A stretch of DNA of 41,870 nucleotides from Candidatus Pacearchaeota archaeon (GCA_035362415.1 DAOSDM010000005.1:1-41870); one strand, 5' to 3'; counted from the first letter of the stretch, positions 30,573 through 34,142 are shown. Made by a program: numbers and translations. The notes: generated by a model not told the origin, from the letters alone.

Positions 30573-30611
30573 TCCCTATAGTATACCATAGCAGAAATGT
30601 TTATCAATAAT

Positions 30612-30640
30612 TTGACAATCACAAATCATTATTTTATACT
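30612..30640 (+). promoter_or_regulatory. sigma70-type promoter (TTGACA-17-TATACT)
   Basis: -35 TTGACA at 30612-30617 and -10 TATACT at 30635-30640. An AAGGAGG RBS lies at 30678-30684. Confidence 0.5.
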
Positions 30641-30690
30641 ATAAAAGCTCTAGTAAGGGCGTTCTTTAACAATTTATAAGGAGGATGTGT

Positions 30691-32001
30691 ATGTCAGAAA
30701 GTTTACCAACTGTATACGCGAAGGCGTTTCTTTGCGTATTTGGACCGCTGTTGATTACATGGCTAGTATTGCCATTCATTCCCTTCGTAAACACTTTCGT
30801 AGCTGCTAACTTTATTTTAATAAATGTAATCATTGTTGCATACATGGTTATTTCCTCGATCTTTGTAGTATATCTATACCTTGCCCCAGATGCAATTGCC
30901 TTTATTTTCGCGTTAGAAAACGTGGCTACACTTATTCAATCTGGCGGAAAGTTTGTTGACGTGGCTTATAGCTCACGAGACAGAGTGGTTAGAGAAGACT
31001 TTGAAGTAGATCTCGAACCAAACCGCAAAGAAAGTTGGATCAAAAAAAATTTAGGAGGATTAACTTTTTATGGATTACCTCCATTCAGAGATGTGCTCTT
31101 TATCGATCTTCGACACAATAAACTTATTGAAACAATGATAGAGAATAGTAGAGAAGTGCAGTATAGAATAGAAAAAACAATTAAGCGAACGTCGAGAATA
31201 GATCTCAAAACAACAAACTATGCAATGTCCTTCAATGAAATGGAGGCCAAGGACAGAATACAAATCTATGCAGTAATCGTGGCAACACTAAGAGTTAGTA
31301 ATATCTATACGTTCCTAAACAATCGAGATCCTTATGGTAGACTTGAAGAATTTCTATGGGCTGCTTTCCGTACCTTTGTAAGAGATTTCGAAGTAGATGA
31401 ATTGATTGGTAATCGTTCTACTGGAAATAAAGATAATCAGAAAGCTATTAAAAATGAAAGAGCAATGCTCGGAAAAAAATTCTTCGATTACTTAATGGTT
31501 GATTATACCGAAATAACAAATGTAAAGATAGATGTAAAAAAACGAAATGAAGGAGGAGTAACAAGATGTTTTATTAAGATAGATGATCTAGGATTCGAAA
31601 TATCAAATTTCGCAGTCCTTGATATTAATCTCAAGGATAGATCTGCAGAAGAAGCCTCTCAAATGCTGTACGTTGCAGAAAAAAAGAGGCAAGCAATAAT
31701 TATTGAGGCAGAAGCAGAAGCGGAGAAGATACGGAAGCTTGCAGAAGCAGAGGCGCAAAAAATAAACATGGTTTCTGAGGTTTGCAAGAAGAATGGCATT
31801 CCGCCTTCATTGCCAGTAGTCACTGAAAAAATGGGACCGGACCAAGCAAATTACTTCTATTGGCATGGCGATCACGATGGCCGGAATTTAAATGGCCAGC
31901 AGGCACACACTCTCACTGAGGAGCAAATCAAAAAAGCACTTAGTGCTTTCATTGATTCTCAGCAAGTTATTTCTCCTAAAAAGGAGAAGGAACAGCCGTA
32001 A
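30691..32001 (+). CDS. SPFH/band-7 (flotillin/HflK-like) membrane protein
   Basis: Start taken at ATG 30691, 6 nt after the RBS; the ORF track starts at 30685. Two N-terminal TM helices, a central SPFH-like region, and a C-terminal AEAEAEKIRKLAEAEAQKI coiled coil. GC and codon usage are clearly higher than the surroundings. Confidence 0.5.
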   Translation: MSESLPTVYAKAFLCVFGPLLITWLVLPFIPFVNTFVAANFILINVIIVAYMVISSIFVVYLYLAPDAIAFIFALENVATLIQSGGKFVDVAYSSRDRVVREDFEVDLEPNRKESWIKKNLGGLTFYGLPPFRDVLFIDLRHNKLIETMIENSREVQYRIEKTIKRTSRIDLKTTNYAMSFNEMEAKDRIQIYAVIVATLRVSNIYTFLNNRDPYGRLEEFLWAAFRTFVRDFEVDELIGNRSTGNKDNQKAIKNERAMLGKKFFDYLMVDYTEITNVKIDVKKRNEGGVTRCFIKIDDLGFEISNFAVLDINLKDRSAEEASQMLYVAEKKRQAIIIEAEAEAEKIRKLAEAEAQKINMVSEVCKKNGIPPSLPVVTEKMGPDQANYFYWHGDHDGRNLNGQQAHTLTEEQIKKALSAFIDSQQVISPKKEKEQP

Positions 32002-32033
32002 ATTATTTTTAATTTTACGGCTTTTTTTTATGG
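31997..32033. terminator. bidirectional hairpin terminator
   Basis: gccgtaaatta...taattttacggc followed by a T8 run. Overlaps the stop codon of the convergent VirB6-like gene. Confidence 0.55.
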
Positions 32034-34142
32034 CCTATTTTGGCGACCACTTCCTGGCTCGCCTGTTGATCCACTACCCCCCCTAGATTCTTGATTGCCC
32101 GCATCTCTTCCCTGAGCAGGTTCGGGAGCAAAATCACTCAATGTTGTTTGGCGAGTTCCATCAGAAAATATCTGTCTTTGAGGTTGTGAAGGTTGAGGAC
32201 AATAAGGACATGATCCAGATGTAAAATATTTCTTTAAAGAAGCATTAGCGTTATTAAAGAAATCATTGTAATTTCTATTTACCGCACCAATAAATTCATT
32301 ATCTTTCTTTCCTCTTGCCCCAAACTCATTTCCGGTCCAGTGTTTTGCTATAGCCTCTCTTATTGCAGAAGAATTTTCAATAGCTTTTACGCTAATATCA
32401 AGTGCTTTTTCTCCTGTTGATTTAGCAATAACCTCTTCTAGCTTAGTATCATACCCTTGACTAATAGGCCCACCCAAACTCATTAACCTCCTTTCATCAT
32501 TTTGATCACCCATTATAGAAGATTTCATAACCTTTTCTTGAGTGCCTTTATCCCCAAGTGTTTTTACTAAATTAAATAGCTTTTCTTCTTGTTTAGCATT
32601 TGCCTTAGCTAAATATTTTCCTATTTCAGCCGAAGTCATTTTAGATATCATGGCTAGCTGTTGTCTAGAACTTCCAGTAACAATATTTTTATTCATTTCA
32701 TTATCTAAATCTTCGGCAGATGTTTTATCGCTAAATGCTTTTGCTTCTTCTTGTACAATTTTAGCATGATCTTCTGCTGCTGTAGGAGCTTTAGTCCATT
32801 TTCTAAATATTGAAGCAGGTCTAGTGGCTAGCCTTATAGCGTTATCAGTTAGAGTATTGTCGCGGCTCATCTCAGGCAAAGCATCTCCTCTAGCCACAAG
32901 TCCTGTCGCTCTTTTTTGCATATCATTTTTTACTGCATATCCCATAGATTTACCAATTTTAGCAGCAGGAGATAGGAAATACTTTGATTGACTCTTGGCT
33001 TCGTTTACTATCTCTGTAACCTCTTTTGGTACCATTTTCTTAGAAATGATTAAAGCCATTATGAGGAATATTGCTAGTAAAAAATATGTAGCAAACATTG
33101 TTCCTAAGTCATCTAAATTAAAAAATATAAAACCACCGGCCTCTTTTCCTAATCCTGCCAAAGACATTTCAGCAGGTTTTTTTAATATATACGTTGCAAG
33201 CATTAAGAAAAATGTTAGTGGCACAGTAAACATGCTCCAGTGAATTAAACTATTTAGCCACTGTTCTCCCATTTTTTTAGTTTGAGGAAGCACAAAACAA
33301 AGCACTGCAAGGGGTGAAATTATAGTAAATATTTGAACAACTGCGATTCTTAAAAGAAGCACTGTAAAATATATAAAGAAAACAGAAGATAAAATAAAAC
33401 TTATTCCTAATTGAACAAAAAATGTTAAAACGTTTGGTAAAAGCATTACTCCAAGTAATGTAACAGCTCCTGCTTGTACCACTGGACCAAGAACTACAGT
33501 CATTCCAGACAAAGTTAATCCAACTAAGTAAGTGATGATTGAGGCTATTTGATCGCCAGAAGCTGTCATAGCCTGCTTTACTAAAGCTCCAGCTATTTTT
33601 CCATCTTCTGCAGTAAAATTAGTAAAAGAATCCATCAAAATATTAGAAACATCAACAAGTATCTGACAGAATAAAAAACTGAAATTTACCAAAAGAGCTG
33701 CCACAATTAATCTAATAATTGCTTTTTTAGGCTCAAACTTATTCCACTTCATAATATAGGAAAGTGCAACAACAACAAATAGAACAATTATGATTAAATT
33801 AGCTAAGCCAGAAGTAAAATTCCATCCAGCTATTACAATCTCATTTCCTCCAAGACTTAGAAGATTATTTGGATCTTGGAGCAAATAATCAACACCTATA
33901 CTACTTAAAGACATTGTAATCCATCCCACACAATACAAAACTAGAACTACGAAAAAAGATTCTACTACGGGGCCTGATGTCTCTTCAATTGCGCCTAATG
34001 CTGAATCAAAATAGTCAAAAATTCCAGTACCAATAAAGGCATGTGTACTCTGAGGTACTAGCATTGCAAATGATAAGATAGCAAAAAATATTAAAATGAG
34101 TGCTTTATATTTTTTTATAATATTAAACATACTATTCATCAT
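32028..34142 (-). CDS. VirB6/TrbL-like polytopic membrane protein with hydrophilic C-terminal tail
   Basis: Signal peptide followed by at least 8 TM helices, then a ~330-aa hydrophilic tail. This architecture, and its position in the cluster, fit VirB6/TrbL. Confidence 0.55.
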   Translation of the reverse strand: MMNSMFNIIKKYKALILIFFAILSFAMLVPQSTHAFIGTGIFDYFDSALGAIEETSGPVVESFFVVLVLYCVGWITMSLSSIGVDYLLQDPNNLLSLGGNEIVIAGWNFTSGLANLIIIVLFVVVALSYIMKWNKFEPKKAIIRLIVAALLVNFSFLFCQILVDVSNILMDSFTNFTAEDGKIAGALVKQAMTASGDQIASIITYLVGLTLSGMTVVLGPVVQAGAVTLLGVMLLPNVLTFFVQLGISFILSSVFFIYFTVLLLRIAVVQIFTIISPLAVLCFVLPQTKKMGEQWLNSLIHWSMFTVPLTFFLMLATYILKKPAEMSLAGLGKEAGGFIFFNLDDLGTMFATYFLLAIFLIMALIISKKMVPKEVTEIVNEAKSQSKYFLSPAAKIGKSMGYAVKNDMQKRATGLVARGDALPEMSRDNTLTDNAIRLATRPASIFRKWTKAPTAAEDHAKIVQEEAKAFSDKTSAEDLDNEMNKNIVTGSSRQQLAMISKMTSAEIGKYLAKANAKQEEKLFNLVKTLGDKGTQEKVMKSSIMGDQNDERRLMSLGGPISQGYDTKLEEVIAKSTGEKALDISVKAIENSSAIREAIAKHWTGNEFGARGKKDNEFIGAVNRNYNDFFNNANASLKKYFTSGSCPYCPQPSQPQRQIFSDGTRQTTLSDFAPEPAQGRDAGNQESRGGSGSTGEPGSGRQNRP

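Follow-up and report, generated by a model that had tools for sequence, protein, structure and literature searches.

Background

SPFH scaffolds such as HflK/C-FtsH, QmcA-YbbJ, stomatin, prohibitin and FloA/FloT share a Band_7 domain, an N-terminal membrane anchor and a long EA-rich C-terminal helix, and FloA is linked to the type VII secretion system (T7SS) of Staphylococcus aureus. Flotillin-type scaffolds are reported to aid secretion-system assembly, and proteins of the Agrobacterium type IV and type VI secretion systems (T4SS and T6SS) co-fractionate with SPFH-containing detergent-resistant membranes (PMC8656257). In Patescibacteria, also termed the Candidate Phyla Radiation (CPR), a T4SS resembling the FATA type of mating-pair formation (MPF-FATA-like) adjoins dnaA (Quinonero-Coronel et al. 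2025, PMC12102498). None of the terms SPFH, Band 7, stomatin, flotillin or prohibitin occurs in the catalogue of that system. T4SS-like genes belong to the small number of loci for which a requirement in the epibiotic or parasitic lifestyle of Patescibacteria has been demonstrated, yet the make-up of the machine is only partly known. Here we describe a stretch of 41,870 nucleotides deposited as Candidatus Pacearchaeota archaeon (GCA_035362415.1, DAOSDM010000005.1:1-41870; the window), in which a divergent SPFH/Band-7 gene of 436 codons lies antisense within a T4SS-like gene cluster.

Loci that evolve by allelic replacement, including the pilA allele groups of Pseudomonas aeruginosa with their linked accessory genes and the capsule and O-antigen loci, offer a further comparison. 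Like the SPFH locus, they combine conserved flanks, unalignable alleles at a fixed position, a distribution incongruent with the flanks and an atypical composition. Unlike them, the variable gene here encodes an SPFH scaffold, probably on the cytoplasmic side, rather than a surface structure or glycan. Genomic islands and "moron" insertions resemble the locus in having their own promoter and terminator, an opposite orientation and atypical GC content, but here no integrase, tRNA, direct repeats or phage match accompany the gene and its position is occupied throughout the clade.

SPFH scaffolds, CPR T4SS clusters and allelic-replacement loci are each already known. What appears to be undescribed is the combination of a conserved antisense SPFH slot, deep alleles that reassort, and a family-wide offset in GC content at third codon positions (GC3). 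The antisense slot and its allele exchange are not in the published Patescibacteria catalogue, a full-text literature search found no link between SPFH proteins and a CPR T4SS, and the SPFH rows in the available part of the PMC10936435 supplement belong to other, canonical SPFH genes. The comparisons below indicate that positions 30612-32029 probably form a self-contained SPFH unit in a conserved slot, in which deeply divergent types are swapped between close relatives.

A probable antisense SPFH transcription unit

The SPFH gene (30691..32001, plus strand; Pfam Band_7, E = 1e-8) appears to be its own transcription unit. A sigma-70 consensus promoter, TTGACA-17-TATACT, lies at 30612..30640 on the plus strand and matches the consensus at 11 of 12 positions. 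It is one of nine promoter-grade sites in the window, where 3.05 +/- 1.7 are expected, and a TTGACA-N16-18-TATAAT-like site is found 5' of the SPFH gene in 11 of 14 diverse related loci. A Shine-Dalgarno sequence read from the DNA, AAGGAGG (30678..30684, plus strand), precedes the ATG at 30691 by 6 nt. Because an upstream ATG at 30685 abuts this element, 30691 is the likelier start, and it is consistent with the N-termini of orthologues. At the other end, a predicted intrinsic terminator (31994..32029, plus strand), with a hairpin of AGCCGTAAATTA/TAATTTTACGGCT followed by T8, overlaps the stop codons of both convergent genes; the RNA fold of 31975-32045 has an energy of -21.1 kcal/mol (z = -3.64 against shuffles). 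The promoter, ribosome-binding site and plus-strand gene antisense to the cluster, as named in a preliminary description made from the sequence alone, are all borne out.

The surrounding cluster runs in the order VirB4, TrsD/TraC-like, PrgI/VirB3, a 133-aa protein, the antisense SPFH gene, a 704-aa VirB6-like protein, a pilin, an antisense 204-aa protein, a 248-aa protein and a 920-aa protein. The SPFH unit sits with the PrgI-TrsD-VirB4 core on one side and the VirB6-like and pilin genes on the other, and probably fills an ancestral antisense slot in an oriC-proximal T4SS-like cluster of Paceibacteria (Patescibacteria/CPR). The arrangement is also found, with 100% identical proteins, on contigs L001 and L002 from two independent runs, which excludes an assembly artefact.

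Occupancy of the slot among Paceibacteria

A VirB4 scan of 185,579 species genomes yielded 80 loci. An iterated SPFH profile identified the gene in 44 distinct loci, always antisense and always flanked by the VirB6-like gene on one side and by PrgI or the 133-aa gene on the other. Five further loci with the slot filled (L089, L092-L094 and L033) bring the total to 49, all from Paceibacteria, with VirB4 proteins 60-96% identical to that of the window. Among them are Minisyncoccus archaeiphilus, Microsyncoccus archaeolyticus and Nealsonbacteria. No SPFH gene is present in L012, L030, L058-L060, L065, a few rearranged loci and a whole group whose VirB4 is ~55% identical. The clearest locus without the slot is L012 (VirB4 92% identical), where at 2-1409 a VirB6-like gene stops 55 bp short of PrgI and both the 133-aa gene and an SPFH gene are missing from that interval.

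This distribution bears directly on the proposal of the preliminary description that a recent horizontal insertion from a higher-GC donor added the SPFH gene and overwrote the C-terminus of the VirB6-like protein. The stretch is the GC-richest of the window and has atypical codon usage, it cannot be aligned with the close relative L089, its right-hand break lies inside the VirB6-like gene, and another close relative, L012, has the VirB6-like gene beside PrgI with no SPFH gene. Comparison with loci lacking the gene, which had been suggested as a check, shows a minority of loci without it, L012 among them, and 49 that carry it in the same position and orientation. Since the slot is filled in these related loci, no gene was newly added here. 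Nor is a foreign donor lineage visible, as all relatives are Paceibacteria-type and the subfamily is tiny. A search with the SPFH protein gave 11 homologue clusters in total, and every named one is Paceibacteria-type; on their contigs, position and orientation of the gene match those of the window. A type-A profile (types are defined below) run against 1.84 billion proteins found 4 representatives at E <= 1e-30 and 244 at E <= 1e-3.

Further evidence against a recent insertion comes from the DNA itself. The promoter and leader region is still homologous with that of L089, orthologues in other low-GC genomes have the same GC3 excess, and the GC content of the VirB6-like tail stems from its amino acid composition. 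The window contains no tRNA, no direct repeats flank 30.6-32.2 kb, and neighbouring open reading frames (ORFs) encode no integrase or transposase domains. Neither PADLOC nor PHROG returned a match for the SPFH, 133-aa, 204-aa, 248-aa, VirB6-like or 920-aa protein. Taken with the synteny, this makes a recent insertion from a higher-GC donor very unlikely. A genomic island was rejected on the same synteny and the lack of a tRNA, repeat or integrase signature, and a defence-system or phage origin was ruled out by the zero PADLOC and PHROG matches.

Exchange of SPFH types between close relatives

The closest relative found, L089, is highly similar to the window in the cluster core, with protein identities of 96% for VirB4, 94% for the TrsD-like protein, 91% for PrgI and 72% for the 133-aa protein. 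Identity is 67% for the VirB6-like protein, 64% for the pilin, 65% for the 248-aa protein and 73% for the 920-aa protein. The SPFH proteins (343 aa in L089, 436 aa in the window) are 25% identical. In a blastn comparison, the two loci are collinear at 75-89% nucleotide identity over 24.7-41.9 kb with four exceptions: 25992-27265, which holds a DUF4143 gene present only in the window; extra L089 genes after PrgI; 30612-32128; and 35146-35945. The third exception, whose left limit lies at ~30612 or 30676, takes in the SPFH gene together with its terminator and the 33 terminal codons of the VirB6-like gene.

Fine alignment against L089 follows homology up to the -35 element, finds an island of identity at 30662-30674 and loses similarity from the ribosome-binding site on. 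This island is a leader motif, CGTTCTTTAACAA (30662..30674, plus strand), which is identical in L089 and is the last stretch alignable with it before the coding sequence; the motif differs by one base in L004 and L093, where it lies at -25 to -28 from the start codon. Homology resumes at 32129, just past the VirB6-like motif TRQ(T/S)TL..F, 33 codons from the stop. In the window, homology thus breaks on one side within the 5' leader or start region and on the other within the 3' end of the VirB6-like gene, which is convergent. The segment that had been described as acquired is a discrete evolutionary unit, unalignable with L089 over 30612-32128, but not an insertion from a foreign donor.

Two SPFH types were distinguished within the clade whose VirB4 proteins are at least 89% identical. 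Type A is found in the window, L004, L094, L006, L007, L092 and L093, with 42-63% mutual identity; type B is found in L089 and L010, with 45-49% identity between the two and 24-32% to type A. The VirB6-like proteins of four of these loci form the groups {window, L089} and {L010, L094}, with 67% identity within groups and 27-28% across groups. Each of the four possible pairings of VirB6-like group with SPFH type is seen (window, L089, L010 and L094), and recombination between these adjacent genes is therefore required. The slot thus holds a hypervariable cassette that recombines independently of its VirB6-like neighbour. SPFH types with ~25% amino acid identity replace each other among close relatives by recombination, the window carrying type A and L089 type B.

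Similar discordance is observed in at least three further clades. L050 and L052 are 98% identical in VirB4 and 81% in the VirB6-like protein, but 34% in SPFH; L036 and L039 are 75% identical in the VirB6-like protein and 24% in SPFH; L039/L043 and L049/L044 are also discordant. The unalignable DNA in such pairs comprises the SPFH gene and at times co-oriented upstream genes, and in L036/L039/L043 the block also takes in ~0.85-1 kb of the VirB6-like 3' end. Reassorting deep alleles of this kind mark a recombination hot spot beside the replication origin and provide a handle on how a host-interaction apparatus diversifies.

The alternative without exchange is that the gene diverged vertically and very fast in place, and that its GC3 excess reflects synonymous-site selection in a strongly expressed gene that has a consensus promoter and a strong Shine-Dalgarno site. 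Several pairs are compatible with this, as their SPFH divergence tracks that of the flanks (L041/L046, 73%; L053/L051, 57%), and a consensus promoter has been kept across the SPFH family. The four-gamete pattern of SPFH types and VirB6-like groups is, however, impossible without recombination and refutes purely vertical divergence. The explanation as a whole is unlikely; the codon evidence on its selection part is taken up below.

No repeats within the 41.9-kb window touch 30.1-32.3 kb, and no reverse-transcriptase domain is present in the scanned ORFs. Within the window, a diversity-generating retroelement or intragenomic donor copies were ruled out on these two results.

The slot has further variable neighbours. 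In the Minisyncoccus clade, small GC3-rich genes without a family match lie directly 5' of the SPFH gene in the same orientation (L053 7379-7816, L057 7340-7744, L044 6291-7052 and L050 6145-7581), and in L050/L052 they lie within the DNA that cannot be aligned. These small genes may act as partners of the cassette. L089 has extra genes relative to the window at two points, namely an ASCH-domain gene and two small ORFs after PrgI (4136-5262) and, after the homologue of the 204-aa gene, a 110-aa gene with an Asp/Asn-tRNA-synthetase-like gene (10616-12880). With extra L089 genes at both points, gene gain and loss also affect the junctions at which the GC-rich antisense genes lie.

Base composition and codon usage

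The region 30600-32250 has a GC content of 0.375, compared with 0.304 for the whole window (sliding 1651-bp windows, sd 0.028). It is essentially the GC-richest part of the window: the peak 1651-bp value is 0.380 at 30716-32366, and 1.3% of windows match the region. The preliminary description had placed GC at ~40-50% across 30.6-32.25 kb. The anomaly is real but weaker than that, since such values occur only at 31.6-32.2 kb (GC 0.43; 150-bp windows 0.40-0.49), and the rest of the SPFH gene lies at 0.29-0.42.

The shift in codon usage is likewise present. The SPFH gene (30691-32001) has a GC content of 0.374, a first-position value (GC1) of 0.48 and a GC3 of 0.323, compared with a GC3 of 0.14-0.27 (mean 0.21) in 35 other ORFs of the window; the single outlier above this range is the 204-aa gene (35120-35734, GC3 0.44). 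Relative to the background, TTC accounts for 56% rather than 16% of Phe codons and CGN for 42% rather than 10% of Arg codons, and AAG (42% vs 20%) and CTC (17% vs 3%) are also raised. The shift in NNY codons is significant (Fisher p = 4e-5), and it extends beyond C-ending NNY to all codon classes, including the normally disfavoured CGA. The codons singled out earlier as rare elsewhere, GCG (5), CCG (4), CTG (2) and CGC (1), are enriched 3-5 fold per 1000, on very small counts of 1-5.

The composition signal could in principle lack biological meaning and arise by chance, or from an Ala/Glu/Gly-rich protein lying beside a Gly/Pro-rich tail. The tail of the VirB6-like gene is indeed an amino acid effect, GC1 of the SPFH gene is high (0.48), and its GC3 is patchy (0.18-0.46 per 50 codons). 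This explanation holds for the tail only: GC3, which is independent of amino acid content, stands at 0.323 for the SPFH gene of the window against a mean of 0.21 and is systematically raised across 24 low-GC loci, and nine control families show no such rise. For the SPFH gene, this comparison refutes a signal without biological meaning, which is very unlikely.

Across 43 loci, SPFH GC3 regresses on the GC3 of neighbouring genes with a slope of 0.51 and an intercept of 0.20. The deviation is +0.095 in low-GC loci (n = 24, mean z +2.8) and -0.03 in GC-richer loci. For the nine control families (VirB4, TrsD-like, PrgI, 133-aa, VirB6-like, pilin, jag, yidC and dnaA), slopes range over 0.79-1.22 and deviations are ~0. 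SPFH is the top GC3 gene in 16 of 44 loci. Because the excess is common to orthologues in other low-GC genomes, it is not the relic of a single recent import. High GC3 also persists in L025/L027/L028 despite protein identities of 55-66%, which looks like a standing property of the cassette rather than a fading relic. In such genomes, an anomaly in GC content or codon usage may be a lasting trait of the gene family and is not by itself a sign of recent import.

This persistence, read as the mark of a standing force, also suits synonymous-site selection in a strongly expressed gene, as does the report that T4SS pilin genes are among the most highly expressed genes of relatives (PMC10936435). Against it, the shift affects all codon classes including CGA, and rpmH, the single ribosomal-protein gene at hand and hence a weak test, has a GC3 of 0.18 in this window; pooled over 27 low-GC loci, its GC3 is 0.24 and its CGN share of Arg codons is 4%, compared with 32% for SPFH. 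A match to the profile of highly expressed native genes, which had been named as the finding that would dissolve the anomaly, is not seen with this one ribosomal gene. Ribosomal-gene-like codon bias was set aside on the same weak test. Strand was also rejected as a cause, as jag and yidC share the strand of SPFH and have native GC3, and as outliers make up only 21% of the other antisense genes of the variable region.

Returning to a cassette that is swapped between relatives, the raised GC3 most likely reflects a separate evolutionary regime of this cassette, as judged from the comparisons above. The regime could be recurrent exchange between lineages of differing GC content with incomplete amelioration, a recombination-associated GC bias, or both. 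Expression-linked selection is a possible cause, and a single recent import is a less likely one.

The VirB6-like gene and its tail

The gene convergent with SPFH (32028..34142, minus strand) encodes a polytopic membrane protein of 704 aa with a conserved transmembrane N-domain and a variable hydrophilic C-domain. It has ~8 hydrophobic segments within residues 5-373. Neither this protein nor 10 of its orthologues matches VirB6, TrbL, PrgH or any other Pfam or NCBIfam profile; membership of the VirB6 family has no profile support, and the label "VirB6-like" is taken only from position and polytopic topology. Among close relatives the membrane domain (residues ~50-350) is 70-100% identical, and in some of the same pairs the hydrophilic C-domain falls to 8-26%.

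The last 33 codons and the stop (APEPAQGRDAGNQESRGGSGSTGEPGSGRQNRP; 32028..32128, minus strand) are of low complexity and unalignable with L089. The tail at 32028-32240 has a GC content of 0.446, in line with the GC-rich tail of the preliminary description, but this is mainly an amino acid effect. Codons 651-700 have a GC1 of 0.62, a second-position value (GC2) of 0.66 and a GC3 of 0.24, so that the GC content of the tail derives mainly from Gly, Ser, Pro, Arg and Ala residues. GC3 over the last 33 codons is 10/33, which is compatible with either a native or a cassette origin.

The proposed replacement of the C-terminus is supported in part by the break in homology 33 codons before the stop, but the tail of L089 is likewise Gly/Ser/Pro-rich, and polar, sequence-variable tails occur in 50 of 50 VirB6-like orthologues. 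From the sequence, the last 33 codons may have been exchanged or may be low-complexity sequence that diverged rapidly; both fit. The similarity of the tail to those of other type-A loci is not significant (best p = 0.03, uncorrected and composition-controlled), and homology among these tails was dropped as a candidate on that value.

Predicted protein and possible function

In the 436-aa protein, 2-3 hydrophobic segments at the N-terminus are followed by an SPFH domain, then by a long EA-rich helix and lastly by a C-terminal tail. Pfam Band_7 (PF01145) covers residues 166-346 with 35.9 bits against a gathering cut-off of 23.6; the type-B proteins reach 52.2 bits in L089 and 51.2 bits in L010, and the score of the L033 protein is 30.8. 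An AlphaFold model built with 11 homologues is of medium quality, with a predicted local distance difference test (pLDDT) score of 65.7 overall and 70-87 inside the SPFH domain. Its best Foldseek matches are HflK/C, stomatin, prohibitin, flotillin, QmcA and vault (probability 0.9-1.0), and low TM-scores result from a different placement of the long helix, modelled at residues 317-367. The N-terminal membrane anchor corresponds to Kyte-Doolittle segments within residues 10-84 and to model helices at 5-64. With Band_7 above its cut-off and matches to the SPFH fold, the earlier identification of the gene as SPFH-like is confirmed. The family profile has zero matches among the sequences of solved structures.

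According to the model, the best structural matches are cage-forming members of the superfamily. The protein differs from known scaffolds in having 2-3 hydrophobic segments rather than one, in belonging to a small, hyperdivergent clade, in its fixed antisense position within a T4SS cluster and in being swapped as allelic types. It also has no NfeD or FtsH partner nearby; Pfam and NCBIfam scans of the neighbouring ORFs found no NfeD, second SPFH or FtsH gene.

By analogy with these scaffolds, the SPFH protein would form an oligomeric membrane assembly that organises or stabilises the T4SS-like membrane complex, possibly acting through the variable C-domain of the VirB6-like protein. The recombination junction that the two share suggests a physical relationship between them. 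Scaffolding of the T4SS-like membrane assembly is, on this analogy, the most likely role that we infer. With its fixed slot in the cluster across Paceibacteria, the cultivated Minisyncoccus archaeiphilus included, the SPFH gene is a candidate T4SS component that the published catalogue lacks.

A more far-reaching and rather doubtful idea is that the SPFH cassette and the variable C-part of the VirB6-like protein together form a specificity or compatibility module. Diversifying or frequency-dependent selection would keep such a module polymorphic, and it would draw on a mobile pool of alleles with its own base composition, as would the 204-aa gene. If so, it could set the partner or host that is engaged, or bar exploitation by phages or competitors.

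Several observations weigh against an exchanged SPFH cassette that scaffolds the T4SS, or against parts of that account. Some related clusters function without an SPFH gene (L012, L030, L058-L060 and the group with VirB4 ~55% identical). Type A is carried by six of the eight typed relatives in the clade and the window copy may be the resident allele, so that the replacement may have occurred in the lineage of L089. SPFH and VirB6-like divergence are not always coupled, as L050 and L052 are 34% identical in SPFH and 66-98% in the VirB6-like C-domain. The structural model is of medium quality (pLDDT 65.7). As to GC3, all known type-A genes come from genomes of low GC content (background GC3 0.20-0.30), which makes simple "pool averaging" less convincing; the adjacent VirB6-like and pilin genes also evolve fast, yet have native GC3; and GC-biased conversion alone would not yield the slightly negative deviation in GC-richer genomes. 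No proposed cause of the GC3 offset accounts for all the data.

The surrounding T4SS-like cluster

The cluster is a Patescibacteria MPF-FATA-like T4SS near dnaA. It lies directly right of dnaA, dnaN, rnpA, yidC and jag (21.6-26.0 kb). On the minus strand it encodes a VirB4 ATPase (27269-29038; NCBIfam conju_CD1110, E = 1e-108), a TrsD/TraC-like protein (29043-29681; TrsD, E = 3e-7), a PrgI/VirB3-like protein (29683-30105; Pfam PrgI, E = 6e-9) and a VirB2-like T4SS pilin (34132..35019; Pfam T4SS_pilin, E = 8e-10). It resembles the published system (PMC12102498) in having VirB4, TrsD-like, PrgI/VirB3-like and VirB2-like pilin genes and a polytopic VirB6 candidate near dnaA-dnaN and rnpA-yidC-jag. 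No relaxase is seen among the ORFs scanned in the cluster. The left flank of the cassette, divergent from SPFH, encodes a conserved 133-aa cytoplasmic protein without a family match (30171..30572, minus strand), which is 72% identical in L089 and 56-67% in other relatives.

The VirB4-TrsD-PrgI core (27269-30105) is 78-89% identical to relatives at the nucleotide level. In most relatives this similarity (78-83%) stops exactly at the PrgI start codon (30105/30106), and contigs L009, L011, L012, L013 and L015 end within ~1 kb of it. Together these observations suggest that assemblies break at this point because the variable half of the cluster differs between strains.

At the other end of the core, jag and VirB4 are separated by a gene for a DUF4143/AAA_14 ATPase (26001-27131, minus strand), for which position 27190 offers an 11/12 promoter match. 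The gene is missing, and jag and VirB4 are adjacent, in L089, L003/L004, L010, L012 and L013, and L009 has a copy that is 76% identical. The block 25992-27265 looks like a true insertion/deletion polymorphism.

A second antisense unit and other features of the window

A second, stronger compositional island spans 35062-35945. It begins with a promoter, TTGACA-16-TG-TATACT (35062-35089, plus strand, 11/12 match), followed by a membrane-anchored orphan gene of 204 codons (35120-35734, plus strand; GC 0.449, GC3 0.44) that is the most extreme GC3 outlier of all loci examined (z ~ +8). Nucleotide homology with L089 is lost over 35146-35945, and the protein is 46% identical there, compared with 64-65% for the flanks. 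It has 3 homologue clusters in all, and its structure model has a pLDDT of 39.

Beside the pilin gene of L006 and of L007 lie weakly related antisense genes that have an FYxGP motif in common. In L091 (GCA_003483345.1, DMWH01000133.1), a protein 98% identical to the 204-aa product is encoded together with 920-aa, RsmA-like and LysM genes. This contig, deposited as "Clostridiales bacterium", is probably a mis-binned Paceibacteria contig.

Elsewhere in the window, positions 1-3795 hold three paralogous pilin-like genes (454-1350, 1340-2230 and 2881-3795), each with an N-terminal methylation motif and a Laminin_G_3 domain, which have repeats of 138 nt and smaller in common. A PCMT methyltransferase gene lies at 2265-2876, and a stretch of it (2340-2458) recurs at 1-119 with 91% identity. 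An ORF of 2110 aa is located at 11088-17420 on the minus strand.

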